The notes below the pieces were generated by a model that saw nothing but the letters and a program-made list of their open reading frames with translations, was not told where the DNA came from and ran no database searches. A DNA stretch of 64,000 nt from an uncultured Bacteroidota bacterium (lineage in GTDB: Bacteria; Bacteroidota; Bacteroidia; 2-12-FULL-35-15): positions 67,929 to 131,928 of the forward strand of contig CAINDA010000065.1 in NCBI GenBank assembly GCA_903847205.1. The letters are read 5' to 3'. The position numbers and the translations under genes are program-made. Below, one piece after another: positions 23,285 to 61,233 of this stretch. Each line of letters opens with the position of its first letter. The first letter of the stretch is position 1.

Positions 23285-23361
23285 AGCAGGGCTTTGTAAA
23301 ATAAAAACAAAAATTTCAAAAACAAAATACACTGGAAATACGAATTAATTAATCTCTTTAA

Positions 23362-24405: not shown

Positions 24406-24408
24406 TCT

Positions 24409-28218: not shown

Positions 28219-28229
28219 ATTAAACAAAA

Positions 28230-29306: not shown

Positions 29307-29310
29307 ATTC

Positions 29311-30348: not shown

Positions 30349-30395
30349 ATTCTTTAATTTCGGGTTCATAACAACCTCTAAAATCAAGCATCTAA

Positions 30396-44819: not shown

Positions 44820-46004
44820 ATGATTTTAGAAATCCCAAAGCCGGCATTAACAATGTATAAACAAACAGTTGATTTTATTAAATCACAATTCCCATCTCAG
44901 GATTCGATTCAGCTGCATGAGCCTGTTTTTAATGGTAATGAAAAAAATTATCTGATAGACTGTGTTGATTCAACCTTTGTTTCATCAGTTGGAAAATATG
45001 TGGATAATTTTGAAAAACAGTTGGCTGCTTATACAGGTGCAAAGTATGCTGTTGCCTGCGTAAACGGCACTGCAGCCCTTCACATGGCAATGATTACCGC
45101 AGGAGTTCAAAGGAATGATATTGTAATTACTCAGCCTTTAAGTTTTATTGCAACATGCAATGCCATTGCCTACATTGGTGCATCGCATTTATTTGTGGAT
45201 GTTGATAAGGATACAATGGGTTTAAGCCCGGAAAAACTAAAAACTTATTTGACTGAAAATGCTGTAAAAAAATCAGACGGTTTTGCCTATCATAAGTCAA
45301 CCGGACAAAAAATCGCAGCCTGCATACCCATGCATACATTCGGTCATCCCTGCCGTATTGATGAACTTGCCGTTATCTGCAATGAATATAATATTGCACT
45401 GATTGAAGATGCAGCTGAATCTATAGGCAGTTATTATAAAAATAAACATACAGGCACTTTCGGACTTTTAGGAACATTTAGTTTTAACGGCAATAAAACC
45501 ATTACCTGCGGCGGGGGAGGAGCTATTGTTACCAATAATGAAGCATTGGCAAAAAGAGCTAAATATTTAACCACCCAGGCTAAAGTGCCTCATCGCTGGG
45601 AATTTGTGCATGATGAAATTGGATATAATTACCGGATGCCTAATATTAACGCGGCATTGGCCTGTGCCCAGCTGGAGCAGCTGAATCCTTTTCTTGAAAA
45701 TAAACGCAGTCTGGCGAAGCTCTATTCCGAATTTTTTAAAGGAACCGGGATGCAATTTATGGAAGAGCCGTCTGATTCAAAATCAAACTATTGGCTTTGT
45801 TCAATATTGCTGCCTGATAAAAAAACACGTGACGAGTTTTTACAATACAGCAATGATAACGGGGTAATGACCCGTCCTGTGTGGAGATTAATGAATAAAC
45901 TTGTGATGTTTAAAGATGCCATCTGCGGTAATTTAGATAATGCACAGATGCTGGAAGACAGGCTGGTGAATATACCGAGCAGTGTGAGGATGCAAATAAA
46001 ATGA
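44820..46004 (+). CDS. DegT/DnrJ/EryC1/StrS family PLP-dependent sugar aminotransferase (LegC/PseC-like)
   Basis: LHEPVFNGNEKNYLIDCVDSTFVSS...AVACVNGTAALHMAMI...FSFNGNKTITCGGGGAIVTN carries the conserved Lys (FNGNK). The start may instead be Met12 at 44853. Confidence 0.8.
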   Translation: MILEIPKPALTMYKQTVDFIKSQFPSQDSIQLHEPVFNGNEKNYLIDCVDSTFVSSVGKYVDNFEKQLAAYTGAKYAVACVNGTAALHMAMITAGVQRNDIVITQPLSFIATCNAIAYIGASHLFVDVDKDTMGLSPEKLKTYLTENAVKKSDGFAYHKSTGQKIAACIPMHTFGHPCRIDELAVICNEYNIALIEDAAESIGSYYKNKHTGTFGLLGTFSFNGNKTITCGGGGAIVTNNEALAKRAKYLTTQAKVPHRWEFVHDEIGYNYRMPNINAALACAQLEQLNPFLENKRSLAKLYSEFFKGTGMQFMEEPSDSKSNYWLCSILLPDKKTRDEFLQYSNDNGVMTRPVWRLMNKLVMFKDAICGNLDNAQMLEDRLVNIPSSVRMQIK

Positions 46005-46636
46005 GAGTGCTTGTAATCAGCGATATTCATGGAAATTTACCTGCTTTAGAATACGTTCTTAAGGAGGAGCAATCTGCTGATTTGGTTATTTCATTGGGTG
46101 ATGTTGTAAATTACGGACCTTGGAGTAATGAATGTGTTGATTTAATGGATTCATTAAAAAGTAAAGTTTTGATTTTAGGAAATCACGAAGAGGCATTTCT
46201 TGATGGGCTGTATCAGGGAAGTAATTTAACAGCAAAAGCCTTTTTTGAAATATGTTACCCAAGCTTTAATCGAAAAGACCAAGTCAGTAAGTACATAAAA
46301 ATGTATTCTTTCAAAGATGCAGTTTTTACTCATACATTAAACAATAGCTATATTTTCAATGACTCAGAAATTCAAATTGAGAAAGATACTTTTATCGGCC
46401 ATTCGCACCGGATATTTTTAAAAGATGTAAACGGTTATAGATTGGTAAACGTTGGCAGTGTAGGACAAAACCGTATAAATATCGATGAGCTCAATTATGT
46501 AATCTGGGATACTGAAAATAATTCTGTCGAATTAATGAGAAAAGAATTTAATGTCGATCAGCTTATTCAAGAAATGAAAATTAAAAACTATCCCGAAATA
46601 TGCCTCAATTATATTTTATCTAAACGCATTAAATAA
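46001..46636 (+). CDS. Metallophosphoesterase (calcineurin-like, YfcE-type)
   Basis: MRVLVISDIHGNLPALEYV (DxHG), SLGDVVNYGP (GD motif), GNHE and GHSH form the motif series. Length is 211 aa. Confidence 0.65.
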   Translation: MRVLVISDIHGNLPALEYVLKEEQSADLVISLGDVVNYGPWSNECVDLMDSLKSKVLILGNHEEAFLDGLYQGSNLTAKAFFEICYPSFNRKDQVSKYIKMYSFKDAVFTHTLNNSYIFNDSEIQIEKDTFIGHSHRIFLKDVNGYRLVNVGSVGQNRINIDELNYVIWDTENNSVELMRKEFNVDQLIQEMKIKNYPEICLNYILSKRIK

Positions 46637-46638
46637 TA

Positions 46639-47631
46639 ATGGGAAACAAAATAAATATAGCCATTACGGGAACAGGCAGTTTAATTGGTCAGGCGGTTAT
46701 TAAGTCAATACAGCGTTCTAATCTAAAAGATAAAATTAGTATAGTCGGCTTTGATTATTTTAAAGAAACAGTTGGTTCGTTTTGGTCAGATAAAAATTAT
46801 TTTCTGCCTGATATTTTAAGACCTGGTATCAGCGAGGAAAAATGGATAAACGTAATTATAAATGCAATTCTTGAAAACAACATTAAACTATTATTTGCCG
46901 GAGTTGATTTTGAACTCCCTCTTTTTGCTAAATATAAAACTGTTATAGAGGAAAAAACAGGTGTTATAATAATGGTAAGTTCTGCAGCCGTTATTGAAAT
47001 TGCAGACGATAAATATTTAACTTACGAATTCTTAAAGAAACATGACCTTTCGCATCCAAAATCTTTTTTACCTGGCGAAGCAGATTTTAATACATTAAAA
47101 TATCCTCTGATTATAAAACCCAGAAAAGGAGCAAGAAGCAAGGGTGTTTATAAAGTAAAAGATAAAGATCATCTCTTAAGCGTTATTGACTCAATTAAAG
47201 ATCCGATTATTCAGGAATGTATAGGTATTGACGAAGAAGAATATACCTGCGGAACAATATATTTGAATGGCGAACTAAAAAAAATAATTGTTTTAAAAAG
47301 GAGTTTAAAAGAAGGAAATACGTTTATCTCTCATTACAAAAATGATTTTCCGGAGATTATTACGACCTATTTAAAAGAAGTTTCGAATTACTTAAAACCT
47401 TTTGGGGCTTGTAATTTTCAGTTAAGACTTGATTCAGAAGGCCTGCCTAAAATATTTGAGATTAATTCTCGTCACTCGGGTACAACCTACATTCGTTCAT
47501 TGTTCGGTTTTAAGGAAGTTGAATATATTATCAATTATCTTTTATTTAATATTGAAATGGAATTTGAAATGAGAGAAGGAACTGTGGTGAGATATTTCGA
47601 CGAATTTTTTGTTCAATCTAATAAAAAATGA
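46639..47631 (+). CDS. ATP-grasp domain enzyme (ligase) within the nonulosonic-acid cluster
   Basis: PLIIKPRKGARSKGVYKVKDKD is the B-loop and FEINSRHSGT the Mg/ATP site. Length is 330 aa. Confidence 0.6.
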   Translation: MGNKINIAITGTGSLIGQAVIKSIQRSNLKDKISIVGFDYFKETVGSFWSDKNYFLPDILRPGISEEKWINVIINAILENNIKLLFAGVDFELPLFAKYKTVIEEKTGVIIMVSSAAVIEIADDKYLTYEFLKKHDLSHPKSFLPGEADFNTLKYPLIIKPRKGARSKGVYKVKDKDHLLSVIDSIKDPIIQECIGIDEEEYTCGTIYLNGELKKIIVLKRSLKEGNTFISHYKNDFPEIITTYLKEVSNYLKPFGACNFQLRLDSEGLPKIFEINSRHSGTTYIRSLFGFKEVEYIINYLLFNIEMEFEMREGTVVRYFDEFFVQSNKK

Positions 47632-48485
47632 AAATTTTAATTACCGGCGTTAACGGTTTTGCAGGGAAGGTGCTGTATAAATATTTGTCCCAGCAGCATG
47701 AAGCTGCAGGGATATATAACAGCGGTAAGGCAATGTTTGGTAATTGTTTTAAAGTTGATTTAACAAAAGAAGCCGAAACAATTCAGGTTATTGGAAAGGC
47801 AGGCGGAGGTTCTATTGATGCTATTGTGCATTTGGCTTCACAGACAGCAAATACAGGCAATGTTAATGATCTTTCGGTGCTATTCAATAATGCAGCTATT
47901 TCAAAGAATATTGCTTTAGCAGCCAGAGAATATGCCGTTAAGCAATTTGTTAATTTATCAAGCTCCTCTGTCTATCCCAATATTGACGGTGTATTCCATG
48001 AAAATTCCAGTATAAACCCAGCGTTGAATTCTGACGGCATTTATGGGTTATCAAAATATAACAGCGAAGTGATTTTAGATTATTTTTTGTCTAAAACAGA
48101 AATTGAAATAACACATTTAAGAACCGCAATGATAATCGGCGAAGAAATGGAAAGTACACGTTTAATTCCCGTTATTGAAAATGAAATAGTAGAACATAAT
48201 ACAGTTACATTATTTGGAAAAGGTGAGCGCTTATTGAACTTAATCAGGGTGGAAAAGCTGGCTGAATATGTATCTTTTTTTTTAAGCCATCCATCTCATA
48301 ATATTGTTAATATAGCAGAAGAGTGCTTATCAGTATTTGATTTAGCTAAAAGGATAATTGTTCAAAAAGGGAATGCTGAAACTAAAATTATCTTGAAAGA
48401 AGAAGGAAACAGAAGTAAATTTATTTTGGATATACAAAAGTTGAAAAAAATAATGGCAAATAGCGTGAATCATGGAGAAAAATAA
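47628..48485 (+). CDS. NAD-dependent epimerase/dehydratase family protein
   Basis: MKILITGVNGFAGKVLYKYL Rossmann N-terminus and YGLSKYNSE YxxxK. Length is 285 aa with a 4-nt overlap with the ATP-grasp gene. Confidence 0.6.
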   Translation: MKILITGVNGFAGKVLYKYLSQQHEAAGIYNSGKAMFGNCFKVDLTKEAETIQVIGKAGGGSIDAIVHLASQTANTGNVNDLSVLFNNAAISKNIALAAREYAVKQFVNLSSSSVYPNIDGVFHENSSINPALNSDGIYGLSKYNSEVILDYFLSKTEIEITHLRTAMIIGEEMESTRLIPVIENEIVEHNTVTLFGKGERLLNLIRVEKLAEYVSFFLSHPSHNIVNIAEECLSVFDLAKRIIVQKGNAETKIILKEEGNRSKFILDIQKLKKIMANSVNHGEK

Positions 48486-48641: not shown

Positions 48642-50132
48642 ATGAAAAATTTCAAAAAAAAGTTTCAACTTTTATTCATTATATTTTTTATCAATACCTT
48701 TTTGACTTTTACAAAATGTGATGCCCAAAATAATGTCGGTATTGGTACGACTACACCTGCACCATCTGCTTTATTAGATATAGATGCAAGTCCAGCAAAT
48801 GATAAAGGAATACTTATTCCAAGGATGAATACAGGGCAGATGAATGCTATTGTCTCCCCAGCAAATGGGTTATTAATTTATAATACGGATTGTAATGTGT
48901 TCGATTATTGGAACGGCTCAGCTTGGATCCCTTTTCCTTTCTCTGGCATAGGCCCTCCACAGCCTAGCACGATTACTGGCATGAGCCCTGTTTGTTTAGC
49001 TCAAAACGGAGTTGTTTATTCTGTTATCAATGTGAGCGGTGTAACGTACTCATGGACCTATTCTGGTACAGGCTTCACCTGCTCTTCAGGATGCACAAGC
49101 AATACCATAACAGCCGCCTTTTCTGCTTCAGCAACTTCCGGTATTCTCACCGTTACACCAAGCAGTGCCTGTGCTGTTGGCACACCCCAAACCTTTAATA
49201 TTACTGTGAATGGCCTTCCTACTGCTGCCAACGCAGGAGCTGATATAAATCCGGCATGCAGTGTAAGCAATACTACGTTAGCCGGAAATCCACCAATAAT
49301 TGGTACAGGTTCATGGTCGGTAGTATCTGGTACGGCCTCCATCACTACCCCAGGTTCTCCTTCATCTGGGGTCACAGGATTGGCAGTGCCTGGCATAGCT
49401 ACCTTGCGGTGGACAATTTCCAATGCTCCCTGCACCTCGTCAACTGATGATGTTGTTATTACAACTACCTCATGCGGATCCACTTGCGGCTTACAAACAT
49501 TTGCATCAGCTAATTTAAATGTTGGTGTCATGGTAACCAGCGATGGTTCACATACTGCACAGCAGCAAACCAATAACGGTGTTGTCGAAAAATACTGTTA
49601 TAACAACGTGACTGCCAATTGTGCCATTTACGGCGGTTTTTATGAATGGCCAGAAGCAATGAGCTACTCTGCTTCTATTAACTGCGATCCTTGCGGAAGC
49701 AGCGGTGTTCAGGGGATATGTCCTTCAGGTTTGCATATACCGACCGATTTAGAATTTAGCCGCTATGAATATTGCTTAGAAAATACTATTGCGCCGACTG
49801 GAAACACAACTTTGTCAGATTTTCAGACTTTAACAAGCTGGCGCGGCACTAATTCAACAGCAGGACCGGGGGCGAAAATGAAAGTAACAAACAGTAACTC
49901 TCCCGCATGGGATGGCACCAATGCCAGCGGTTTCTCGGCACTTCCCGGAGGATTTCGAACGAGCTCAAATGGTGCGTTCTCAACTATGGGCTTATACTCG
50001 CTCTTCTGGAGTGCATCGGAGAATAGTGGTATTGATGCTTGGGCTCGTCGTCAAACTACAGGCAGCGGGCAGTCCGATCGGGGGCTGGGAACAAAAACAG
50101 GTGGTTTTCAGGTTCGTTGTCTGTACGATTGA
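48642..50132 (+). CDS. Secreted protein with C-terminal Fibrobacter succinogenes major paralogous (FISUMP) domain
   Basis: It has a signal peptide and a central Ig/PKD-like Thr/Ser-rich region. The C-terminus FSALPGGFRTSSNGAFSTMGLYSLFWSASENSGIDAWARRQ...GGFQVRCLYD has the YWSS...A..R....SVRC-type signature of the Fib_succ_major domain. The 171-aa antisense ORF 49058..49573 is spurious. Confidence 0.6.
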   Translation: MKNFKKKFQLLFIIFFINTFLTFTKCDAQNNVGIGTTTPAPSALLDIDASPANDKGILIPRMNTGQMNAIVSPANGLLIYNTDCNVFDYWNGSAWIPFPFSGIGPPQPSTITGMSPVCLAQNGVVYSVINVSGVTYSWTYSGTGFTCSSGCTSNTITAAFSASATSGILTVTPSSACAVGTPQTFNITVNGLPTAANAGADINPACSVSNTTLAGNPPIIGTGSWSVVSGTASITTPGSPSSGVTGLAVPGIATLRWTISNAPCTSSTDDVVITTTSCGSTCGLQTFASANLNVGVMVTSDGSHTAQQQTNNGVVEKYCYNNVTANCAIYGGFYEWPEAMSYSASINCDPCGSSGVQGICPSGLHIPTDLEFSRYEYCLENTIAPTGNTTLSDFQTLTSWRGTNSTAGPGAKMKVTNSNSPAWDGTNASGFSALPGGFRTSSNGAFSTMGLYSLFWSASENSGIDAWARRQTTGSGQSDRGLGTKTGGFQVRCLYD

Positions 50133-50214: not shown

Positions 50215-50757
50215 ATGTTTAAGCACCTAAAATTCATTCTGTTTTATCCTAAAATAGGACCAGATATGTACTTAACACATTGGCTTTTGTTTTTTAAACC
50301 TTTTCGTATGTGGTTTCAAAAATATAAAATTGGGAGCATTGGGTCCAACTCTGAAATAAGGCCTTATTGCACAATTATAGGAACCCAAAATGTAGTTATC
50401 GGAAATAATGTTATTATTCCCAATGGGACGACGTTATGTAATTTACCTGGAGATAAAAAATCATTTATTTATATTGAGGATGATGTGCTGCTTGGACCTA
50501 ATGTGGCTATTTACAGCAGTACACATAATTTTCAGAATATAGAAATTCCTATAAAAAATCAAGGTTACAAAACTGCCGAAACACGTTTAAAAAAAGGATG
50601 CTGGGTGGGAATTAATTCTGTGATATTACCGGGTGTTACAATTGGAAAAAATAGCGTTGTAGGTGCTAATTCTGTAGTAAATATAGATGTGCCGGATTTT
50701 GCCGTTGTCGCCGGTGCTCCAGCCAAAATAATAAAATATATCAATGATCCTAAATAG
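50215..50757 (+). CDS. Hexapeptide-repeat (left-handed beta-helix) sugar acetyltransferase (LegH/PseH/WbpD-like role plausible)
   Basis: Consecutive [LIV]GxxxxI hexads: IGNNVIIPNGTTL, VLLGPNVAIYSS, CWVGINSVILPGVTIGKNSVVGANSVV. The true start may be an internal Met. Confidence 0.7.
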   Translation: MFKHLKFILFYPKIGPDMYLTHWLLFFKPFRMWFQKYKIGSIGSNSEIRPYCTIIGTQNVVIGNNVIIPNGTTLCNLPGDKKSFIYIEDDVLLGPNVAIYSSTHNFQNIEIPIKNQGYKTAETRLKKGCWVGINSVILPGVTIGKNSVVGANSVVNIDVPDFAVVAGAPAKIIKYINDPK

Positions 50758-51778
50758 AAACAAAGTATTTATAATAGCCGAAGCAGGCGTTAATCATAAC
50801 GGAAGCATGGATATGGCTGTAAAGTTGATTGACGCAGCAATTAATGCAAAGGTTGATGCAGTAAAATTTCAGACCTTTATTGCCGAAAATGTAATTTCAA
50901 AATACGCTGAAAAAGCCGACTATCAGAAGGAATCCACTGGTGAAAACGAAAGTCAGCTGGATATGGTTAAGAAACTTCAATTGAGTTTCAAAAATTTTAC
51001 TGAATTAAAAATGTATTGCGATTCAAAAGGAATAATGTTTCTTTCTACTCCGTTTGATATGGCCAGTGTTGATTTCTTAGCCACATTAAAAATGGGATTG
51101 TGGAAAATTCCCTCCGGCGAAATTACTAATATGCCCTATCTGCAAAAAATTGGGAGTTTTAATGAGGAAGTTATTTTCTCTACGGGTATGTCAACTTTAG
51201 GCGATATAGAAAATGCATTAAAAATATTAATTGATGCTGGTACATCAAAAGAAAAAATTACAGTACTGCATTGCAATACAGAATATCCTACCCCGATGAT
51301 TGATGTAAATTTAAAGGCGATGTTAACCATTAAAGGAGCATTTGATATTAACATAGGTTATTCTGATCATACCTTAGGAATTGAAGTGGCCATCGCAGCA
51401 GCGGCTTTAGGAGCAAATGTTATTGAAAAACATTTTACATTGGACAAGTCACTTCCTGGACCGGATCACAAAGCATCATTAGAACCTCAGGAATTAAAAG
51501 CGATGACGGCAGCAATAAGAAATACTGAACTGGCTTTAGGAAGCAGAGTAAAATTGCCGACATCTTCAGAAAAAAAGAATATTAACATAGCCCGCAAAAG
51601 TATTCATTTAGCAAAAAATATCACAAAAGGGGCAGTTATTACAACTGATGATTTAATTATTAAACGTCCTGGAAATGGGATAAGTCCGATGTTTTTAAAT
51701 GAAATTATAGGCTGCGTTGTAAAGCATGATCTCACCGAGGACAGCATTTTAAATTTCAAAGATATAGAATGGAAATAG
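50744..51778 (+). CDS. Nonulosonic acid synthase (NeuB/LegI/PseI family, with C-terminal SAF domain)
   Basis: VFIIAEAGVNHNGSMDMAVKLIDAA is the NeuB N-terminal signature. It also has KFQTF, YSDHTLG and a SAF-domain C-terminus. Length is 344 aa. Confidence 0.8.
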   Translation: MILNRNKVFIIAEAGVNHNGSMDMAVKLIDAAINAKVDAVKFQTFIAENVISKYAEKADYQKESTGENESQLDMVKKLQLSFKNFTELKMYCDSKGIMFLSTPFDMASVDFLATLKMGLWKIPSGEITNMPYLQKIGSFNEEVIFSTGMSTLGDIENALKILIDAGTSKEKITVLHCNTEYPTPMIDVNLKAMLTIKGAFDINIGYSDHTLGIEVAIAAAALGANVIEKHFTLDKSLPGPDHKASLEPQELKAMTAAIRNTELALGSRVKLPTSSEKKNINIARKSIHLAKNITKGAVITTDDLIIKRPGNGISPMFLNEIIGCVVKHDLTEDSILNFKDIEWK

Positions 51779-52878
51779 CAATTTTAACCAGTTCGCGCGC
51801 CGATTTTGGTTTTTACAAGCCCTTGCTAAATCGTTTAAATAAACAAAAATCGATTAAAGCAAAACTGGTTGTTTTTGGAACTCATCTTTCTAAAAAACAT
51901 GGTTATACCATTGATGATATAAGAAACTCCGGTTATAAAATATTTTCAGAAATAGATGTTATCCCTGCGGGTGACAAGCCTCAAGATATTTCTAAATTAA
52001 TAGGTAAAGCGCATTTGAAATTTGGCGAATTTTGGAAACAAAATAAATTTGATTTGATTTTATGTCTTGGCGATAGATATGAAATGTTTGGGGCTGTGTC
52101 TGCATCTGTGCCTTTTAATATACATGTTGTTCATATCAGCGGCGGTGAAGAAACTTTAGGAGCGATTGATAATATCTACAGGCATTCACTTTCTTTAATC
52201 GCAAAATATCATTTTACCAATACTAAAAAAAATGCAGAGAGAGTGAAGCAGATTAAAAATTCGTCAAAAAATATTTATCATACTGGTTCAATGGCAGTTG
52301 ATAATATCAATGCTACTGAATTATATAATGCCAAAAATTTCCAAAAAAAATTTAATTTTAATATTGCTGAACCCTTTATACTCTTTACGTTTCATCCTGA
52401 AACTGTAAACTATGCAAACAATGAATCTTATTCTTCAATTATTAAAGAAACACTGCTCAGTTTAAATACAAATGTGCTTGTAACAATGCCTAACGCAGAT
52501 ACAATGGGTGATGTGATCAGAAAACAATTACACGAAGCAGCCACAGAAAATAAAAGGATTCACCTTTTTGAATCATTGGGTTCTAAGGGCTATTACACTG
52601 CTTTAAAAAATTGTGATTTTGTATTAGGAAATTCATCAAGCGGCATTGTTGAAGCGGCATCATTTGGTAAATATGTAATTGACTTGGGCAGTCGTCAGCA
52701 GGGAAGGGAAACCGGGAAAAATGTAATTCAATGCAAAATAAATAAAGATAAAATTCTCATAGCAGTTAAACAATTAAGAGTTTTACCTAAATTTAGTACT
52801 AAAAATATTTATGGTGATGGAGATGCGAGCGGTAAAATTTTCGCTCTGTTAAAAAAAATTGAAGCTGGACTAATCTAA
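51769..52878 (+). CDS. UDP/GDP-N-acetylhexosamine 2-epimerase, hydrolysing (NeuC/LegG family)
   Basis: MEIAILTSSRADFGFYKPLL, GDRYEMFGAV and HISGGE are NeuC blocks. Length is 369 aa. Confidence 0.8.
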   Translation: MEIAILTSSRADFGFYKPLLNRLNKQKSIKAKLVVFGTHLSKKHGYTIDDIRNSGYKIFSEIDVIPAGDKPQDISKLIGKAHLKFGEFWKQNKFDLILCLGDRYEMFGAVSASVPFNIHVVHISGGEETLGAIDNIYRHSLSLIAKYHFTNTKKNAERVKQIKNSSKNIYHTGSMAVDNINATELYNAKNFQKKFNFNIAEPFILFTFHPETVNYANNESYSSIIKETLLSLNTNVLVTMPNADTMGDVIRKQLHEAATENKRIHLFESLGSKGYYTALKNCDFVLGNSSSGIVEAASFGKYVIDLGSRQQGRETGKNVIQCKINKDKILIAVKQLRVLPKFSTKNIYGDGDASGKIFALLKKIEAGLI

Positions 52879-52887
52879 ATTTTATTC

Positions 52888-53940
52888 ATGACAGATTTTA
52901 ATAAATACATATTTCCTGAAACGGGTACAGCCCGCGAAGCACTGCAGTTAATTAATAAAATAGGCATTCCCAATATGGCTGTTTTTATTGTTAATGAAAA
53001 TCAGCAGTTAGTTGGATCATTGACTGACGGCGATATCCGGCGCGGTTTATTGAACGGGATTACTATTGATGCTCTGGTAGGTAAATTTATGAATCCTTCA
53101 AGCAAAAGTTTTGAAGACGGCGGAAACAATTTTGAAAAAGTAAATAAATATAAGGCTGCCGGAATACGTTTTATTCCTGTGATTGATGAAAATAAAAAAA
53201 TTGTAAGGGTTGTCGATCTCGAGAAGCTGCGTTCTATAATTCCTGCAGATGCGGTATTGATGGCCGGAGGGAAGGGAGAAAGGCTGAAACCATATACTGA
53301 TACTACTCCTAAACCAATGCTGAAAATTGGCGATAAGCCTATTATTGTGAGGAACCTTGAACGGCTTGCGAATTATGGTATAAGCAATTTTCATATTTCA
53401 GTGCGTCACATGGCCGATCAGATTGAAAATGGCATTAAAGAATATAAAATTGATAATAGTTTATTAAATTTTGTAAAAGAAGAAAAACCCCTTGGGACAA
53501 TTGGTTCCGTTAAGTTAATCAAAACATTTATATATGATACAATCCTGCTGATGAACGCGGATTTGCTTACTAATATTGATTTTCAAGATTTTTACAAAAA
53601 ATTTCTCGAATCGGGAGCCGACATGCAGGTGGCTACTATTCCCTATAACATTGATGTTCCTTACGCCATAATGGATATAAGCGATAAAAATGAAGTACTG
53701 TCTTTTAGCGAAAAGCCCCGTTATACATATTATTCGAATGCAGGAATTTATGTATTCAAAAAAGAATTAGTGAGTTTGATTCCTGATAATGATGTGTTTG
53801 ATGCTACTCATTTTATGGAAGCAGTAATCGCCTCCAAGAAAAAATTAACATCCTATCCAATTTTAGGATATTGGCTGGATATAGGCCGTATAGAGGATTT
53901 TTACAAAGCACAGGAGGATGTTAAACATATTTATTTCTGA
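52888..53940 (+). CDS. CBS-pair + sugar-phosphate nucleotidyltransferase (PtmE-like)
   Basis: The N-terminal ~110 aa contain two CBS motifs. Then comes an NTP-transferase core AVLMAGGKGERLKPYTDTTPKPMLKIGDKPII. This matches the architecture of C. jejuni PtmE in the legionaminic acid pathway. Confidence 0.6.
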   Translation: MTDFNKYIFPETGTAREALQLINKIGIPNMAVFIVNENQQLVGSLTDGDIRRGLLNGITIDALVGKFMNPSSKSFEDGGNNFEKVNKYKAAGIRFIPVIDENKKIVRVVDLEKLRSIIPADAVLMAGGKGERLKPYTDTTPKPMLKIGDKPIIVRNLERLANYGISNFHISVRHMADQIENGIKEYKIDNSLLNFVKEEKPLGTIGSVKLIKTFIYDTILLMNADLLTNIDFQDFYKKFLESGADMQVATIPYNIDVPYAIMDISDKNEVLSFSEKPRYTYYSNAGIYVFKKELVSLIPDNDVFDATHFMEAVIASKKKLTSYPILGYWLDIGRIEDFYKAQEDVKHIYF

Positions 53941-54623
53941 TGAAAATTTTATATATCATACCTGCACGCGGGGGGAGTAAGGGACTTCCTGGCAAAAACA
54001 TTCGTGTATTAAATGGTAAACCGTTGATTGCTCATAGCATTGCAGCAGCTCAAAATTCGCATCATCATGGAACTATCCTCGTTAGCACGGATGATGAAAA
54101 AATAGCGGCTATTTCAAAAGAATACGGTGCTGAAGTTCCCTTTCTGCGCCCTGCTCAATTGGCCTCTGATACAGCTTCTTCAATTGATGTGCTTTTTCAT
54201 GCACTGGTTTTTTACAGTGCTCAAAACATAACATTTGATAGTATTGTTTTGTTACAGCCGACATCACCGCTGCGGACTTCCAAAGATATTGATGCGGCAA
54301 TTGAATTAATGATTAAAAAAAATGCAGAAGCAATTGTATCAGTATGCGAAGCCGAACATCACCCGCTTTGGGCAAATACATTACCTGAAGATGGCTGTAT
54401 GAAAGATTTTATCCGTGAAGAAATAAAAGGATTAAACCGGCAGCAGCTGCCAAAATATTATCGGTTGAACGGAGCAGTTTATATTTCCACCATTTCTGCA
54501 TTAAATAAGTACAAAGATTTTTTACATGAAAAAACGTTTGCTTATGTTATGCCTGCAGAACGTTCAGTAGATATTGACCACGAAATAGATTTCAAATTAG
54601 CAGAGCTTCTGCTGAAGGAATAA
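53940..54623 (+). CDS. CMP-nonulosonic acid synthetase (acylneuraminate cytidylyltransferase family, NeuA/LegF-like)
   Basis: MKILYIIPARGGSKGLPGKNIRVLNGKPLIAHSI is the CMP-sugar synthetase P-loop-like signature. Length is 227 aa. Confidence 0.8.
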   Translation: MKILYIIPARGGSKGLPGKNIRVLNGKPLIAHSIAAAQNSHHHGTILVSTDDEKIAAISKEYGAEVPFLRPAQLASDTASSIDVLFHALVFYSAQNITFDSIVLLQPTSPLRTSKDIDAAIELMIKKNAEAIVSVCEAEHHPLWANTLPEDGCMKDFIREEIKGLNRQQLPKYYRLNGAVYISTISALNKYKDFLHEKTFAYVMPAERSVDIDHEIDFKLAELLLKE

Positions 54624-54641
54624 TTATTGTTGAAACAATCC

Positions 54642-55517
54642 TTATTTTAATTTAATCCGCTCAAACGCATCAATAAAGGAAATCTCACTGGCATTATATA
54701 TTTTGCAATTAAGTTTTGCTGCATAATGGTTTAAAATAAAGTAAGCAGAGAATGTCCTGCTCCAGATATCAAAAAATTCATGTGCTTTTTGTGTTCCTTT
54801 ATCAGGATAAGCTTTTAGAAAGGGGACAAATTTTATTTCCTTTTCATTTTCAAAAAAGTGAGCCACTTTTGTGTAAAGAATATTTTCGTCGCTCATGTGC
54901 AGATTCTCATGCCAGGTATGATCAGCACCGACTAAATAAATTTCTTTATACTTCATATTTATCCCTAAAAACAGTGCAGCTATAGTAACATTTAAACTTT
55001 GAGGCATTGCCAGGTCACTTTTGTAAAACCGTTCTGCAAGGCTCGGGAACCCTTTAAATACTGTATAGTTGAAAGGAGTCAAAATTATGCTGCTGTTTTT
55101 TTTTTGTAATTCAATAAAAATAGGCTGATTCATTGCGCGTTTCGGCACCATTAAATTCAAAGGCCAATTTGTTTTTTCTTGAAGGCTTTTGAAAGTTGCT
55201 GCAATAGCCTCATTCGTCCCTTTCCAAAAGAAAGGATCAAGTATAACATAATATTTTGGTTTTAGTGTTTCAAACTCCGGTGTTAAAGCAAAAGTATTTA
55301 CGCAGATAAGCGGATACTGTTTAAATAATTCAGGATGTTTTTCAAGGGAAGCTTTAAGTGAGGGACCATTCGCCAATACAATGCATCTTTCGCTTTTTGC
55401 CTTTGGAAGATGAAGCCCGAATTTGGACTGTACAAGGATTTTTAAAACAGACAGAAAAGTATTTACGCTTTGCGATATAAAATTCACTAAATTTTTATAG
55501 GCTGCTTCCGCTGTCAT
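54642..55517 (-). CDS. DUF115 / MptE-like (motility-accessory-factor-like) protein, candidate nonulosonic-acid glycosyltransferase
   Basis: CIVLANGPSLK is the glycine-rich GNGPSL-type motif of the DUF115/Maf family. YLVGADHTW appears later. Length is 291 aa. It is convergent with the CMP-sugar synthetase gene. Confidence 0.4.
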   Translation of the reverse strand: MTAEAAYKNLVNFISQSVNTFLSVLKILVQSKFGLHLPKAKSERCIVLANGPSLKASLEKHPELFKQYPLICVNTFALTPEFETLKPKYYVILDPFFWKGTNEAIAATFKSLQEKTNWPLNLMVPKRAMNQPIFIELQKKNSSIILTPFNYTVFKGFPSLAERFYKSDLAMPQSLNVTIAALFLGINMKYKEIYLVGADHTWHENLHMSDENILYTKVAHFFENEKEIKFVPFLKAYPDKGTQKAHEFFDIWSRTFSAYFILNHYAAKLNCKIYNASEISFIDAFERIKLK

Positions 55518-55689
55518 TTGGTTTAAATATTTTTACAAATGTAATTATAATCATTAAAAACTGATTTCCAATTTACCCAATAATAAATCAGCCCTTCTCC
55601 AGCCATGCCGCAATAGTAATTTCAAATACTGAAGATTGTTATTTTTTGCTAATTTTGACATCTGCTTATTCAAATTAAAAAGATTATTA

Positions 55690-56385
55690 ATGAAAAGTAA
55701 ATTACCAAGACCGATCGTCGATTTAGCTAAAAAAGTGGTTATCCCCATTTTAAGAAACCGCTGGAAAAAAAATCCTATTGTAGCTGAATGGGTTAAGAAA
55801 GGCTATATTGATGATAAGGAAATAGATTTTATTGTGTTGAATTGGCATAAATGGAATGCACCGACTCCGCCTCCTCATAAAATAAAACAACTTACTGTTG
55901 CTGAATTCGGCAAAAAATATAAATGCAGAATATTGGTTGAAACCGGCACTTTCCGAGGAGATATGATGGAAGCTCAGAAAAATAATTTTGATAAATTATA
56001 TTCCGTTGAACTAAGCATTGAATACTGGGAAAAAGCAAAACAGCGTTTTAAAAGTGATTCACGGATTAATTTAATTCAGGGCGACAGCGGTGAAGTGCTT
56101 CCGAAACTTGTTCCGACACTGGAACAGCCTGCATTATTTTGGTTAGACGGTCATTACTGCGGGAGCTCAACTGCTTTGAGTGCTGTGGAGTGCCCTATTT
56201 ATGCAGAAATTGATGCGGTTTTTAAAAATAATAAGGGACACGTAATGCTTATTGATGATGCCCGTTTATTTATAGGAGAGCATGATTACCCGACAATTCC
56301 TGAGTTAACTCAATATGTTAAAAAAATAAATCCGGATTATTCCGTTACTGTTGTTGACGACATGATTAGAGTTGTGAAATCTTAG
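55690..56385 (+). CDS. Class I SAM-dependent methyltransferase, TylF/MycF/CmcI-like (sugar O-methyltransferase candidate)
   Basis: ILVETGTFRGDMMEA is the SAM motif and LFWLDGHY a metal/active-site-like block. The ORF track starts at 55636, but Met19 (55690, MKSKLPRP) is a more plausible start. Confidence 0.5.
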   Translation: MKSKLPRPIVDLAKKVVIPILRNRWKKNPIVAEWVKKGYIDDKEIDFIVLNWHKWNAPTPPPHKIKQLTVAEFGKKYKCRILVETGTFRGDMMEAQKNNFDKLYSVELSIEYWEKAKQRFKSDSRINLIQGDSGEVLPKLVPTLEQPALFWLDGHYCGSSTALSAVECPIYAEIDAVFKNNKGHVMLIDDARLFIGEHDYPTIPELTQYVKKINPDYSVTVVDDMIRVVKS

Positions 56386-56404
56386 CAAATTTAATGAAGA
56401 CAAA

Positions 56405-57136
56405 ATGATCAACGTAGAACGTATCACAAAAAAAATATTTCAAAATTTCGGACTGCTTATTCGTAAGTACAATGCCGCTACCAGTGAAGAACTCAGACGC
56501 ATTAAACTTTTGGAGCATTACAACATTGATTTGGTTTTTGATATCGGTGCAAACAAAGGCCAATATGCTACCGGTATCATTGATGCCGGTTATGCCCATA
56601 AAATAGTTTCATTTGAGCCTTTATCTTCTGTTTACAAAATAATTGAAGCTGAAAGCAAAAAGTATGAAAATTGGACTGTTGCACCGCGCTGCGCTATCGG
56701 CAGTAAAAAGGAAGAAATTGAAATTAATATTTCTGCAAATTCGGTAAGCAGTACTTTGCTGAATATGCTGGATTCACACTATCAAGGCGCCCCCGACTCA
56801 AAAATTATCGGTAAAGAAAAAGTACAGGTATATCCATTAGATGAAATAGGACTGGAATACAGCAAATCCGCAAAAAATATTTTTTTTAAAATTGATGTGC
56901 AAGGGTTTGAGCAGGAGGTGTTGAAAGGGGCGCAGACAATGATTGCTAGCGCAAAAGGAATTGAAATGGAAATTTCATTGCTGCCATTATATGAAAATCA
57001 AAATTGGTTATTGCCGCAGGTCTTGGAATATATGGAACAAACCGGATTTCAACTAAACAGTATTGCGCCGGCATTTACTGATAATAAAACGGGTGTGGTG
57101 CTGCAATGCAACGGCATATTTTTTAGAAAAAAATAA
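56405..57136 (+). CDS. FkbM family methyltransferase
   Basis: LVFDIGANKGQYATGII and FKIDVQGFEQEVLKGA are the two FkbM-domain signatures. Length is 243 aa. Confidence 0.8.
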   Translation: MINVERITKKIFQNFGLLIRKYNAATSEELRRIKLLEHYNIDLVFDIGANKGQYATGIIDAGYAHKIVSFEPLSSVYKIIEAESKKYENWTVAPRCAIGSKKEEIEINISANSVSSTLLNMLDSHYQGAPDSKIIGKEKVQVYPLDEIGLEYSKSAKNIFFKIDVQGFEQEVLKGAQTMIASAKGIEMEISLLPLYENQNWLLPQVLEYMEQTGFQLNSIAPAFTDNKTGVVLQCNGIFFRKK

Positions 57137-57217: not shown

Positions 57218-58297
57218 TCAAATACAATTTTTAACAGAAATTGTTTTACTCATCGTATTATAAATATCTACAAACGTATCCTGCAGGTTCCATTTATATT
57301 TCCATTCAGGATAATCATTTTGAAATTTTGAAACATCACTGATGTACCATATATGATCACCGCTGCGTGCCTGCTCGCTGTAGCTGTGGTTTAATTTTTT
57401 GCCGCTGATATCTTCGCACATTTTTATTGCTTCAATCATCGAACAGTTAGCAAACCGCCCGCCGCCGGCATTGTAGGCAGCACCTTTTTTGGGATTTTGA
57501 TAAAAATTCCAAAACATATCTACCAAGTCGGAGCTGTGGATATTATCACGCACCTGCTTTCCTTTGTAGCCGAATATGGTATAATGATCTCCGGAAAGCG
57601 TGCATTTCATTAAGTAAGATAAAAAACCATGAAGCTGTGCCCCGCTGTGGTTTGGGCCCGTTAAGCATCCGCCGCGGAATACACCTACATTCATATCAAA
57701 ATATTTTCCATACTCCTGAGCCATCACATCGGCAGCTACTTTTGAAGCGCCGAATACAGAATGTTTGGTATGATCAATACTCATTTGCTCATCAATGCCG
57801 TTTTTAAAATACGGATGAGATTCATCAATTTCCCAGCGTGTTTCTTTTTCTATCAACGGCAGAAAATTAGGATTATCGCCATATACTTTATTGGTAGAAG
57901 TAAAAATAAAAACAGCTTCCTTGCAATATTTGCGGGTCAGTTCAAGCATGTGCATGGTGCCTAAAGCGTTCACGCCGAAGTCTGTGATTGGCTCTTTAGC
58001 TGCCCAGTCATGACTGGGTTGTGCGGCAGTATGTACAATCAGTTTAATATCACTTCCGTATTGATTGAATATTTTTTCGAGTTCAATTAGGTTTCGGATA
58101 TCAATTGAATAATGTTCGTAGTTAGAAACAGTTTCTTTTATTCTGGTTACATTCCAATTGGTGGATGCGGCTGTTCCGAAAAAATAACTTCTCATATCAT
58201 TATCGATACCGATTATTTTATCAAATTTTTTCGAAAAAAAGGAAACAGCTTCACTGCCGATTAATCCTCCAGAGCCTGTTATTAATGCTATATTCAT
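57218..58297 (-). CDS. Extended SDR NDP-sugar epimerase, CDP-paratose/tyvelose 2-epimerase-like
   Basis: [21 protein letters not shown] glycine-rich N-terminus. [38 protein letters not shown] gives YxxxK plus the post-motif block typical of the CDP-tyvelose epimerase subfamily. Length is 359 aa. Confidence 0.6.
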
Positions 58298-58395: not shown

Positions 58396-59541
58396 TTATT
58401 GAGCCCATGACGCAATTGTGTCATAGCTCTGCCTTACAAGGTTATTTAAAGTTTTCGATATTTTTACTGCATTTTGTTTTTTGATATTTATTTCATCACG
58501 GTTTAAAGAAGAAAATATTGTTTGGATCTCCTCCTTTAGATTGGGGCTGTCTTCCGCAAACCAGCCTGCATCCTGCAGTAAAAACCAGTTGTCGCTTTCT
58601 TTGTTTCCGCAGAAAATAATGGATGCTCCGCAGCAGATACTGCTTACTGCTTTTGAAGGCACGGCAACATGAGTCCATGAATTTACAAGTGTTACAAGAT
58701 GCACATCAATATGATGCAGTTCGTTCCGGGGCACGCTGTTTAGTATAGTTACCGAAGGATTATTTTTTGCGTATTGTTTCAGCTCTTCCGCTTTAATTCC
58801 GTAAACAGCCAGTACCATATGGTGTTTATCAGGGTTCAGCTGATCGATTACAGTTTTAATAAAATCTCCGGAATGGGGATTTCCGCAATTACCGCAGTAT
58901 CCAAGGTATATCTTATCAATATGGACTTTCCATGCAGGAGTTTTTTCAATTTTATTTTGATCTAAAAAAACACCGCAGGGTAAAATAACATGTTCTATCT
59001 GCCGTCCGTATTTTTTATCTAAAAGTTTTTTTTGATGAGGTCCAAGAGCTATTATTTTATCGGGAGCATTTTTATAAGTCTGTTTAAGAGCGTATCTATA
59101 TAAAAAATTGTTTTCGCTTAATTCGCCAGTAGCAGCAAACCCTTCCGGGAATAAATCCATGCTCCATAAAATCCATTCAATTTTTTTACGGCCTAATATT
59201 TTTGATGCCCACATCGGCAGCAGGGGAGGACTTGTCATTACTATAATCGGTCCGTGATTTAATTTAGCGGCCTTCCGGATTAAATTGTAACCATCCAATA
59301 AACTGCTCAGATAGCGGAGTATTTTATTATTCCCTTCATAAATCGTTTTGATTGGATACGTTTTGCCAACCGGTTCACGTTTGGTCCCGCCTCCTTCATA
59401 ACTGCGGCTGATGTGAACAACTGCCACTTCTAATTTATGATGTTCAATTAAATAATTTGCGAGGTCCCAGGCATTTTCACCTGTAATGTTAATATTGGGA
59501 GGGTAATGACGGTTGACTATAGTTAATTTTTTTGTCTGCAT
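58396..59541 (-). CDS. GT-B fold glycosyltransferase (GT4/GT1 family)
   Basis: The N-terminus TIVNRHYPPNINITGENAWDLANYL resembles GT4 WcaI-like proteins (YxP.....G). Length is 381 aa. Confidence 0.65.
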   Translation of the reverse strand: MQTKKLTIVNRHYPPNINITGENAWDLANYLIEHHKLEVAVVHISRSYEGGGTKREPVGKTYPIKTIYEGNNKILRYLSSLLDGYNLIRKAAKLNHGPIIVMTSPPLLPMWASKILGRKKIEWILWSMDLFPEGFAATGELSENNFLYRYALKQTYKNAPDKIIALGPHQKKLLDKKYGRQIEHVILPCGVFLDQNKIEKTPAWKVHIDKIYLGYCGNCGNPHSGDFIKTVIDQLNPDKHHMVLAVYGIKAEELKQYAKNNPSVTILNSVPRNELHHIDVHLVTLVNSWTHVAVPSKAVSSICCGASIIFCGNKESDNWFLLQDAGWFAEDSPNLKEEIQTIFSSLNRDEINIKKQNAVKISKTLNNLVRQSYDTIASWAQ

Positions 59542-59763: not shown

Positions 59764-61233
59764 TTGGGATCAATAAAAAGGCAGGGAATACAAAACGCTG
59801 TTATCACTTACTCAGGTGTGATGATTGGTTTTGTGAGTCTGTTGTTTATACAGCCGAATTTACTTAAACCCGAAGAGCTTGGATTGACGCGCATTTTAAT
59901 TGCTGCTGCAAGTCTGATCGCAACTATTTTACCATTGGGTGTGAGCAGTGTCACAACCAGATATTTTCCTTTCTTTCGTAATGAAGAGAAAAAACATCAC
60001 GGCTATTTTGGTTTTATGCTCCTCTTTCCCCTGCTGGGGACTGTTATTTGCGGTATTTTAGTTTACTGTTTCAAAAATGTAATCATCAATCAATACATTG
60101 AACAGTCATTTTTATTCACCCGCTTTTTTGATCTGCTTTTGCCCTTTGCCTTTATAATAGGGCTTAATATGGCATTGAATGCCTACTGCGCTTCCCTTTT
60201 TAAAACCGCAGTAATAAGTTTTTTTGAAGGGATTTTCTGCCGTGTTCTTTTTATTTTCCTGATTGTAATCTATTATTTCAGATGGATAGATCTTACCATG
60301 TTTATCAATTTGTTTGTCACCATTTATGCATTACAGGCTGTGTCAATGATAATTTATATTTATTCAGAGGATAAACCTTCGTTAAAAATCGATACTGGTT
60401 TTCTGAAATCTATTGGGCTTAGAAACCTCATAAAATATGGTTTAATACTAACGGTGACAAATTTCTCTTCCCTGAGTTTGAAGCACCTCGATGCAATTAT
60501 GATTGGTAAATATATGAACCTTGATTATGTCGGCATTTTTACTGTTGCTGCATATATTGCACTTGTGATTGAGATACCGCTTACTTCGCTGGAGCGGATT
60601 ACACACACTAAAGTCGCTCAGGCATGGGCGAATAAGGATACAGAGAGTATCAAAAAAATATATAATCAATCAGTAAAATATTTAATGCTGGCAGGCGGGT
60701 TGCTGTTAGTCGGTATTATTGCAAATGTTCATGAACTGCTGGGGCTGCTGCCTGAGGCATATCACAAGGGTGCTGTGGTTATTGTGATTACCTGCATCGG
60801 CGGGTTTTTAAATATTGCGACAGGTGTAAATACTTCAATACTTTTTGCTTCCGAAAAATACGTTTACGGCGCTTATTTATTGATCTTTTTAATGATAGCG
60901 GCCATTATTTTGAACATTATTTTAATACCAAAGTACGGCATTGAAGGGGCTGCATTTGCAACCGCTCTGTCGTCTGTAATTTATAATGCTTTGAAGTATT
61001 TTATTATTTTGAAAAATTTTAAAATGCAGCCTTATGATATGTCGAGTGTGAAAATACTTCTTGTGATTGCGGCAGCATTTTTTGTAAGCTATTTGCTGCC
61101 TTCAATGAATAACACTGCTGCATCTATTGTGTTTAAAACAGTTGTAATTACAAGTGTTTACGGAAGCCTTACAATTCTTTTAAAAATTGTGCCGGAGTTT
61201 CATCAGTACATTTCATTCAGCAGAAAAAAATGA
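59764..61233 (+). CDS. Wzx-like oligosaccharide flippase, paralog of 30396..31877
   Basis: A 489-aa polytopic protein with a TTG start. The N-terminal block GLTRILIAAASLIATILPLGVSSVTTRYFPFFRNEEKKHHGY and the C-terminal FKMQPYDMSSVKILLVIAAAF align residue-by-residue with the other flippase gene. Confidence 0.65.
   Translation: MGSIKRQGIQNAVITYSGVMIGFVSLLFIQPNLLKPEELGLTRILIAAASLIATILPLGVSSVTTRYFPFFRNEEKKHHGYFGFMLLFPLLGTVICGILVYCFKNVIINQYIEQSFLFTRFFDLLLPFAFIIGLNMALNAYCASLFKTAVISFFEGIFCRVLFIFLIVIYYFRWIDLTMFINLFVTIYALQAVSMIIYIYSEDKPSLKIDTGFLKSIGLRNLIKYGLILTVTNFSSLSLKHLDAIMIGKYMNLDYVGIFTVAAYIALVIEIPLTSLERITHTKVAQAWANKDTESIKKIYNQSVKYLMLAGGLLLVGIIANVHELLGLLPEAYHKGAVVIVITCIGGFLNIATGVNTSILFASEKYVYGAYLLIFLMIAAIILNIILIPKYGIEGAAFATALSSVIYNALKYFIILKNFKMQPYDMSSVKILLVIAAAFFVSYLLPSMNNTAASIVFKTVVITSVYGSLTILLKIVPEFHQYISFSRKK

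Follow-up and report, generated by a model that had tools for sequence, protein, structure and literature searches.

The question raised by this locus is which enzyme transfers the nonulosonic acid (NulO) for which it carries biosynthetic genes. The locus lies in a 64,000-nucleotide stretch of DNA from an uncultured Bacteroidota bacterium (GenBank assembly GCA_903847205.1, contig CAINDA010000065.1, positions 67,929 to 131,928 of the forward strand), here called the window, whose positions are used throughout. A sequence-only reading of the window had nominated the gene at 54642-55517, on the reverse strand, as a DUF115-type gene with a Maf-like product that carries the motif CIVLANGPSLK and could move the NulO to its acceptor. 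The open reading frame (ORF) and the motif (residues 45-55, positions 55353-55385) were found as described there. The ORF, its match to PF01973, an AlphaFold2 model, fold matches and a profile alignment made with hhalign characterise the product of 291 amino acids (aa) as a stand-alone, sialyltransferase-like protein of the DUF115/Maf_flag10 type and as a candidate cytidine monophosphate (CMP)-nonulosonate transferase.

The DUF115 protein, its family and its predicted fold

The gene starts with ATG, and this start is backed by an N-terminus that is conserved across 46 homologues. In the Pfam search that the sequence-only reading had proposed, residues 28-203 matched PF01973 (MptE-like/DUF115) with an E value of 6.2e-11 and 42.8 bits, above the gathering cut-off of 34.6; no other Pfam family was matched at E<=1, and none of the NCBIfam models matched. 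We identified 373 homologues with a uniform length of about 290 aa, and a search of a 1.84 billion cluster database with a family profile of 47 sequences recovered 3753 cluster representatives at E<=1e-3, of which 904 reach E<=1e-30; a chance ORF is ruled out by the even length of the homologues together with this large profile-search family. The top 150 representatives are mostly near full length (about 280-320 aa), with a few shorter and apparently partial sequences among them. Members of the family, of which the window holds a single copy, come mostly from Bacteroidota, including the cultured Solitalea lacus and Arcticibacter sp. MXS-1, and in one case from a Desulfuromonadaceae metagenome-assembled genome.

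In databases, members of this family are named "hypothetical", "DUF115" or "MptE-like diphosphokinase". All of 36 diverse relatives match PF01973 at E<=1, some of them under the cut-off (e.g., with 23.8 and 25.3 bits). Many diverged members that fall below this cut-off have no precomputed domain and are hence listed as plain hypothetical proteins, and others have been automatically named "6-hydroxymethylpterin diphosphokinase MptE-like"; for the subfamily of about 290 aa, the MptE-like name is probably misleading.

Neither a signal peptide nor a transmembrane segment was detected in the DUF115 protein (highest 19-residue Kyte-Doolittle mean, 1.33), as would suit a cytoplasmic enzyme with access to CMP-sugars. 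Residues 3-30 form an N-terminal amphipathic helix with a hydrophobic moment of 0.45. Scanning the surroundings of the gene for promoters and terminators gave counts at the level of shuffled sequence, for a sigma-70 consensus that may not suit Bacteroidota promoters. The 18-bp spacer that separates the stop codons of the DUF115 gene and its convergent neighbor (54624-54641; TTATTGTTGAAACAATCC) holds an inverted repeat, ATTGTT/AACAAT, which was not flagged by the terminator scan and could represent a minimal hairpin shared by the two genes.

The AlphaFold2 model, which was built on the 47-sequence alignment, has a mean predicted local distance difference test (pLDDT) value of 91.4 and a predicted template modelling score of 0.88, with only residues 220-225 below a pLDDT of 50. 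It shows a strand (residues 44-48) followed by a helix (residues 53-60) around the N-G-P-S loop as well as, C-terminal to the central module, a lid-like hairpin region, a long helix and a strand. The best fold match was Maf (5MU5; score 14.4 over 212 aligned residues), followed by MptE (8SD5; 11.2, 157 residues), the glycosyltransferase (GT) family 42 enzyme Cst-I of Campylobacter (2P56; 11.0, 170 residues), SteA (9.5, 165 residues) and four animal GT29 sialyltransferases (7.9-8.2, 153-165 residues). The comparison with Maf that the sequence-only reading had called for thus bore out the resemblance but not the GT-B-like fold expected there, as Maf has in its catalytic domain a modified version of the GT-A fold, akin to that of GT42 and GT29 (bioRxiv 10.1101/2020.06.03.131540; 10.1101/2022.03.25.485807). 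This Maf-type central domain is present in the window protein, and the model suggests that the protein consists of the sialyltransferase-like (modified GT-A) catalytic module alone, i.e., of what forms the central domain in Maf and the whole of the GT42 enzymes.

With regard to sequence, a search of the PDB with the single window protein yielded noise only; the family profile, when compared with all PDB sequences at E<=10, found one protein, the GT42 sialyltransferase Cst-II (E 0.017). Alignment of the family against Cst-II with hhalign gave a probability of 93.8% and an E value of 1.8e-7, and paired residues 44-204 with Cst-II residues 2-158 at an identity of about 24% across this core; two stretches of the Cst-II query whose letters are less certain (160-181 and 219-259) fall outside the paired range. 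A-N-G-P-S-L of the window motif is paired with G-N-G-P-S-L of the A-G-N-G-P-S-L stretch at the Cst-II N-terminus, and further pairs are N74/N31, D94/N51, Q173/Q128, G197/G152 and D199/D154; the Cst-II donor-binding core (G-N-G-P-S, N31, N51, Q128-S132 and G152-D154) is matched in the DUF115 family alignment.

Conservation within the family covers these positions and others. N50-G51-P52-S53 is invariant in both the 47-sequence and the 36-sequence alignment, and invariance down to 29% identity extends to N74, P87, W118, N176, G197, H220, F221, N275 and D283, with D199, H200 and W202 being nearly invariant. Two conserved segments lie near the C-terminal end of the module. G-A-D-H-T-W-H (residues 197-203; 54909-54929, reverse strand), which contains the G197 and D199 that align with Cst-II, marks the end of a core beta-strand. 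A-H-F-F (residues 219-222; 54852-54863, reverse strand) lies at the edge of the sole low-confidence loop, in the region that corresponds to the Cst-II lid. The lid of Cst-II becomes ordered on CMP binding and is closed by His188, which is the catalytic base (His202 in Cst-I; PMC4202792). H220 is set at the border of the model's only disordered loop, 21 residues past the G-x-D strand (the distance in Cst-II is 34); it is our candidate for a corresponding general base, and the N-G-P-S loop would bind the nucleotide (CMP).

PF06002, the Pfam model of GT42, was not matched by the window protein at E<=1 but was matched by two of the 36 diverse relatives (best E 2.9e-6); as all 36 also match PF01973, the family lies between DUF115 and GT42 in sequence space. 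The sequence-only reading had treated the GNGPSL-type motif as a mark of DUF115, which agrees with the PF01973 match, but the Cst-II alignment shows that the motif is also common to GT42 sialyltransferases. PF01973 in addition covers the MptE kinases, and a motif or family match alone therefore cannot separate a transferase from a kinase; that separation depends on gene context, the ranking of fold matches and the Cst-II alignment.

Gene linkage in the window and across relatives

In the window, the DUF115 gene is convergent with, and separated by only 18 bp from, a gene on the forward strand (53940-54623) that encodes a CMP-nonulosonate synthetase of the acylneuraminate cytidylyltransferase family (PF02348 CTP_transf_3, E 1.4e-24), an arrangement that had been read correctly from the sequence. 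The best NCBIfam match of this protein is PseF (TIGR03584), with 168 bits, a value below the cut-off of that model. Ten genome loci from GTDB representatives, encoding homologues with 57-73% identity to the window protein, retain this arrangement to a large extent. The DUF115 homologue is divergent from the same methyltransferase genes as in the window in nine of them, and a cytidylyltransferase gene adjoins it in nine, the contig of the tenth ending at this point. The adjoining cytidylyltransferase takes one of two forms, being either convergent and 68% identical, as in the window, or about 36% identical and located directly downstream on the same strand; the latter paralogue occurs in loci L001, L002, L003, L005, L008 and L009 (about 10880-11750). 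In L002 (10797-14367), the locus in which the genes beyond it were annotated, it is followed by GFO/IDH/MocA and short-chain dehydrogenase/reductase (SDR) oxidoreductase genes and a membrane acyltransferase gene, and we take the cytidylyltransferase and oxidoreductase genes to resemble ptmB/ptmF/ptmA of the Campylobacter legionaminic acid locus.

After 80 further metagenome loci had been added and redundancy removed, 76 loci were left; 34 of these have 10 kb or more of flanking sequence. Neighbors were detected by tblastn with the window proteins, and family hidden Markov models rebuilt from the matches changed little. Homologues of NeuB, the CMP-synthetase or NeuC were found in at least 20 of the 34 loci, or in at least 23 if DegT and PtmE types are counted. 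A hexapeptide acetyltransferase of about 225 aa was present in 18 loci, usually directly downstream, a Wzx-like flippase in 13, and a glycan-assembly gene of some kind (Wzx flippase, acetyl- or methyltransferase, or YfhO-like protein) in 33. These counts are lower bounds, as the detection missed a Pfam-annotated cytidylyltransferase in L011. Family members with as little as about 33% identity still show linkage to CMP-sugar synthetase and NulO genes, which supports the proposal that the gene encodes a NulO transferase. Because a NulO cluster makes up a small fraction of a genome, it seems far beyond chance that about half of the diverged loci have a NulO synthase within 10 kb.

The synthetase gene is the last in a series of forward-strand genes in the window. 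These include genes for a hexapeptide acetyltransferase (50215-50757), a NeuB/LegI-type synthase (50744-51778; TIGR03569, 490.7 bits), a hydrolysing 2-epimerase of the NeuC/LegG type (51769-52878; TIGR03568, 377.4 bits) and a PtmE-type protein with CBS and nucleotidyltransferase domains (52888-53940); the two TIGRFAM values are above the respective cut-offs, and the acetyltransferase and the PtmE-type protein were assigned from Pfam and NCBIfam. Further upstream are sugar-modification genes (44820-48485) for a DegT-type aminotransferase, a metallophosphoesterase, an ATP-grasp enzyme and a short SDR. The Campylobacter GDP-linked route to legionaminic acid is reportedly marked by the co-occurrence of a NeuC-type epimerase and a CBS-nucleotidyltransferase, and the product of the operon next to the DUF115 gene would be a nonulosonic acid of the legionaminic acid type.

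On the other side of the DUF115 gene, and divergent from it, lie two methyltransferase genes on the forward strand (55636-57136; Methyltransf_24-like and FkbM family), a pair that is kept beside the DUF115 gene in closer relatives. The mechanically called ORF of the first one (55636-56385) begins with TTG at 55636 and encodes 249 aa; an identical gene in L013 has been called with 231 aa, a call that would place the start at an in-frame ATG at 55690 and would make the divergent intergenic region about 170 bp rather than 118 bp long. Then follow, on the reverse strand, genes for an NAD-dependent SDR epimerase/dehydratase (57218-58297) and a GT-B, GT4-like glycosyltransferase of 381 aa (58396-59541) and, on the forward strand, a Wzx-like flippase gene (59764-61233; MatE/Polysacc_synt_3), homologues of which recur beside DUF115 homologues. 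The GT4-like protein has no Pfam match of its own and was classified by its homologues, which carry Glyco_trans_4_4 or are named GT4 or WbuB, and by an AlphaFold2 model with a pLDDT of 91.3. Almost all of the top 50 Foldseek matches of this model are GT-B transferases that use nucleoside diphosphate (NDP)-sugars; GlgM, MshA and sucrose-phosphate synthase lead, BshA and WaaG are found further down, and no sialyltransferase and no TagB/TagF is among the 50. We therefore rejected this protein as the NulO transferase on the basis of its fold. As the only other glycosyltransferase nearby is of this NDP-sugar type, the DUF115 protein is the only sialyltransferase-like protein near the NulO genes. 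Among about 50 window ORFs scanned against Pfam, none belonged to a flagellar family and none to a TagB-type (glycerophosphotransferase) family.

Several recurrent features of the surveyed loci are recorded here as observations in their own right. In 12 non-redundant loci, the gene directly downstream of the DUF115 gene is that for the acetyltransferase of about 225 aa, and a Wzx-like flippase gene often comes next; this module, which the window does not contain in that form, is seen in L042, L045 and L048 (10001-13000) and also in L011, L019, L021 and L026. In addition, the window encodes a YfhO-like polytopic membrane protein of 840 aa (32041-34563, reverse strand), and homologues of it occur within 10 kb of a DUF115 homologue in 12 related loci, including L085 (7362-9821), L075, L087, L091, L070, L042 and L021. 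Full-length homologues show 37-40% identity in nine loci and about 25% in two more, and the one in L021 shows 65% over a partial match; in five loci, the gene is located roughly 35-180 bp upstream of the DUF115 gene on the same strand. This protein may be an extracytoplasmic (GT-C-type) partner in the glycan pathway.

Secreted proteins are encoded within several of the NulO operons. In the window, the gene at 48642-50132 (forward strand) encodes a protein with a signal peptide, PKD_6 and Fib_succ_major, and has a GC content of 0.47, compared to about 0.33 in its neighbors; L002 encodes a protein with PKD and the type IX secretion system (T9SS) signal CHU_C (16048-18774, reverse strand), and L011 a protein with Laminin_G_3 and Por_Secre_tail (11487-12656, forward strand). 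The corresponding operon slot of L001, L003, L007, L015 and L017 is taken by large ORFs (813-1130 aa) whose N-termini resemble signal peptides. No homology links these proteins to one another, and distant NulO-linked loci lack them; their role could be that of acceptors, or they could be hitch-hikers.

Apart from the NulO locus, the window has a second sugar locus (20297-31877, forward strand) with genes for a nucleotidyltransferase, a radical SAM enzyme, a GFO oxidoreductase, two SDR epimerases/dehydratases, an RmlC-type 3,5-epimerase, two proteins of the C-methyltransferase type, another methyltransferase, a weakly matching GT2 and a second Wzx-like flippase, a content that suggests synthesis of a branched or C-methylated deoxysugar glycan. 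The two sugar loci are flanked by genes for a T9SS cargo protein (17442-19907, forward strand; TIG, FG-GAP repeats, PKD and Por_Secre_tail) and for a regulator of 1134 aa with Reg_prop, Y_Y_Y and SpoIIE-phosphatase domains (37703-41107, reverse strand).

Proposed function and rival explanations

That the DUF115 protein is a CMP-ulosonate-dependent glycosyltransferase is, in our view, quite probable from its fold, donor-site alignment and synteny. For the fuller explanation, in which a cytoplasmic CMP-nonulosonate transferase caps a lipid-linked glycan before flipping, our confidence somewhat outweighs our doubt. Family membership, fold, donor-site alignment and conserved gene linkage are shown here by computation, while donor, acceptor, stereochemistry and catalytic residue are what we infer. 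The adjacent operon would make a legionaminic-acid-type nonulosonic acid that the convergent cytidylyltransferase would activate with CMP. The DUF115 protein, soluble or peripherally membrane-associated in the cytoplasm, would bind the CMP-sugar via the N-G-P-S loop, N74, D94, the P-Q-S-x-N segment and G197/D199, which we propose as the donor site because they align with the donor-site scaffold of Cst-II. The sugar would then be moved to a hydroxyl of an undecaprenyl-linked oligosaccharide at the membrane's inner face, in a reaction that is probably metal-independent and inverting, with the invariant H220 in the lid-like flexible segment as the likely general base. The methyltransferases and the GT4 enzyme would complete the unit, the Wzx-like flippase would export it, and its attachment to protein or lipid would take place outside the cytoplasm. 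With a flippase, methyltransferases and a GT4 enzyme as neighbors, the DUF115 protein probably has a glycan, and not flagellin, as its acceptor. A protein O-glycan is a reasonable destination, as a cluster of the Tannerella type has the same gene combination, and lipopolysaccharide or another polymer would be possible as well.

Four points weigh against this explanation. No family member that has been characterised biochemically or genetically was found. The archaeal kinase MptE fits the fold almost as well as Cst-I does. Alignments with Cst-II end at residue 204, short of the catalytic His188, and the catalytic machinery described here is hence putative. Finally, in 11 of the 34 informative loci, no gene for NulO biosynthesis was detected within 10 kb, which implies that some members may use a donor other than a nonulosonic acid, possibly CMP-Kdo (Kdo, 3-deoxy-D-manno-oct-2-ulosonic acid); it is mainly for this reason that our confidence is not higher. 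Most of these 11 loci show one of two recurring arrangements, i.e., a compact module of GT2 / DUF115, acetyltransferase and Wzx (as in L045) or a gene for a YfhO-like membrane protein of 820 aa directly upstream of the DUF115 gene with a methyltransferase gene downstream (as in L085). The NulO genes of these genomes may lie elsewhere, or the donor may be another CMP-ulosonic acid such as Kdo.

The least improbable alternative, though still an unlikely one, follows from these loci: the protein could be the same kind of transferase but use another CMP-ulosonic acid (e.g., Kdo) or tolerate a broad range of donors, such that NulO adjacency does not define the donor. Maf enzymes indeed accept Neu5Ac and Kdo instead of their native sugar (bioRxiv 10.1101/2020.06.03.131540; PMC11339370). 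However, the gene abuts the CMP-NulO synthetase gene in the window and its closer relatives, the six loci with the same-strand cytidylyltransferase have this homologue directly downstream (with oxidoreductase genes behind it in L002), and the NulO genes of the exceptions may simply be located elsewhere in the genome. We also judge it unlikely that the protein is, like Maf, a direct protein O-glycosyltransferase that attaches NulO to Ser/Thr in the cytoplasm, for example on the secreted protein encoded in the operon. While Maf is the best structural match, and signal-peptide or T9SS-type proteins are encoded inside the NulO operons of the window, L002 and L011, with large ORFs in the same slot of five further loci, the embedded proteins are neither homologous between loci nor found in the more distant NulO-linked loci, and a Wzx-like flippase recurs beside the gene, pointing to a lipid-linked intermediate. 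Because Sec and T9SS substrates are unfolded when they cross the inner membrane, glycosylation beforehand in the cytoplasm is less likely. Moreover, the window protein lacks the N- and C-terminal domains of Maf, the sole parts proposed to handle flagellin (PMC11339370).

Transfer of the NulO by another protein, either the GT4-like enzyme at 58396-59541 or a TagB-like enzyme encoded elsewhere in the genome, would leave the DUF115 protein as an accessory or degenerate paralogue. In the one genetically studied Bacteroidota system, the NulO transferase is indeed TagB/GT-B-like rather than DUF115 (PMC5420450), and the GT4-like gene is syntenic in closer relatives. We nevertheless regard this explanation as quite unlikely: the fold matches of the GT4-like protein and the names of its homologues point to NDP-sugar transferases, no TagB-type Pfam match was found among the roughly 50 ORFs scanned, and the invariance of the putative active-site residues in the DUF115 family argues against degeneration. 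Least likely of all, and in our estimation very unlikely, is a protein that is no glycosyltransferase but modifies a sugar intermediate, be it as an MptE-like pyrophosphokinase or as a nucleotide-dependent small-molecule enzyme of another kind. The Pfam family is named after MptE, but MptE aligns over 157 residues as compared to 212 for Maf, and no MptE sequence was matched even at E<=10, whereas Cst-II was found. None of the contexts examined showed a folate or pterin gene, whereas glycan genes were present in 33 of 34 loci, and we know of no described legionaminic or pseudaminic acid pathway that requires such a kinase. A literature search on the catalytic residues of MptE returned nothing usable.

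Relation to known systems

Few enzymes that place legionaminic or pseudaminic acid on glycans are known, and glycan-directed legionaminyltransferases are still described as essentially unknown (PMC11356810, PMC7439481), the legionaminic acid transferase of Bacillus subtilis being one that is still unidentified (PMC7439481), and the glycan NulO transferases that have been described belong elsewhere, i.e., to a TagB-like group in Tannerella and to GT118 (KpsS1) in Acinetobacter. While the Pfam family and, via Maf, its role in NulO transfer are already known, the stand-alone catalytic module, the large and mostly Bacteroidota family, and the linkage to glycan rather than flagellar genes are new; full-text literature searches returned no description of such short DUF115 forms. 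If the function proposed here is correct, the Maf catalytic module exists alone, outside flagellar biology, as a family of compact and soluble enzymes with one domain each, whose hundreds of diverged members are linked to NulO operons of diverse kinds. These would be candidate catalysts for bacterial sialic-acid mimics and would provide a handle on surface-glycan building in environmental Bacteroidota, while a correct name could replace the hypothetical and MptE-like diphosphokinase labels. Such a result would be useful to glycobiologists and annotators, and would not surprise a specialist. More tentatively, and as a possibility that we would not yet bet on, stand-alone DUF115 proteins of about 290 aa could be glycan-directed legionaminyl/pseudaminyl (ulosonic-acid) transferases that form a large family not recognised so far. 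As the free-living form of the module from which Maf is built, they would replace the TagB-like enzyme in Bacteroidota and, together with a Wzx-like flippase and a recurrently linked YfhO-like GT-C membrane protein, decorate O-glycoproteins or T9SS-anchoring glycans; they would then also be the natural legionaminyltransferases that chemoenzymatic synthesis is missing.

The Maf proteins of Magnetospirillum magneticum (5MU5), Clostridium botulinum (CbMaf) and Campylobacter jejuni (Maf4) share with the window protein a genomic linkage to CMP-NulO biosynthesis. Maf is a tripartite protein with N-terminal Rossmann-like, central, and C-terminal helical domains, of which the outer two are suspected to handle flagellin (PMC11339370). 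At about 600 aa it is much larger than the 291-aa window protein, in which the N-terminal Rossmann-like domain and the C-terminal helical, FliS/flagellin-like domain have no counterpart, and its flagellin context contrasts with a Bacteroidota host for which no flagellar genes were seen among the ORFs scanned. The description of the protein as Maf-like thus holds for the catalytic domain and not for the protein as a whole, which, lacking both the outer domains and flagellar neighbors, is not a motility accessory factor. For the residues found to be critical by mutagenesis of Maf (MmMaf E324 and D415, CbMaf S334), plausible counterparts are D94, D199 and the S174/N176 segment, all of them conserved; this correspondence is by spacing only (23-25 residues from Ser to Asp) and not by residue-level alignment with Maf. 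MptE, the archaeal 6-hydroxymethyl-7,8-dihydropterin pyrophosphokinase, superposes structurally with no detectable sequence match, serves pterin synthesis as opposed to the glycan-assembly context seen here, and offers no counterpart to the C-terminal 90 residues (lid, helix and strand) of the window protein.

Comparable in gene content is a cluster from the same phylum, that of Tannerella, which comprises wzx, pse or leg genes, a NulO transferase gene and, next to it, two methyltransferase genes (PMC6120980, PMC5420450). The window likewise has wzx, NulO genes, a transferase gene beside them and methyltransferase genes beside the transferase gene, and the role proposed for the Tannerella transferase, glycan capping with a nonulosonic acid, is the one proposed here. 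The Tannerella enzymes are, however, TagB/GT-B-like proteins of 442-445 aa with D/E-D/E-G and HP motifs (PMC5420450), and their fold is unrelated to that of the window protein; if the roles match, the DUF115 protein would be a non-homologous replacement and a functional analogue only. A DUF115 precedent among the Tannerella pseudaminic and legionaminic acid transferases had also been considered and was dropped given their TagB/GT-B-like nature (PMC5420450). KpsS1 of Acinetobacter baumannii (GT118) is likewise a glycan-directed transferase for a bacterial nonulosonic acid, but is a retaining pseudaminyltransferase for capsule that belongs to another family and fold, related to the KpsS/KpsC/WbbB Kdo transferases (PMC12887879).

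The GT42 enzymes Cst-I and Cst-II of Campylobacter jejuni (2P56, 1RO7, 2X62) are, like the window protein, single-domain, modified GT-A proteins of similar size. The window protein differs from them by an extra N-terminal amphipathic helix, lies outside GT42 as defined by the PF06002 model, and aligns with Cst-II only up to a point before His188. Tyr156 and Tyr162 of Cst-II, which we take to be phosphate contacts, are not conserved, and the window family has H200, W202 and H220 instead. The N-terminal G-N-G-P-S-L, C-x-N, x-D/N-P and G-x-D motifs of Cst-II nevertheless align with the window family, a flexible lid-like segment follows the G-x-D strand in both, and the mode of action that we propose for the DUF115 protein is that of Cst-I and Cst-II, which use a CMP-nonulosonate donor to modify lipid-linked oligosaccharide (LOS).

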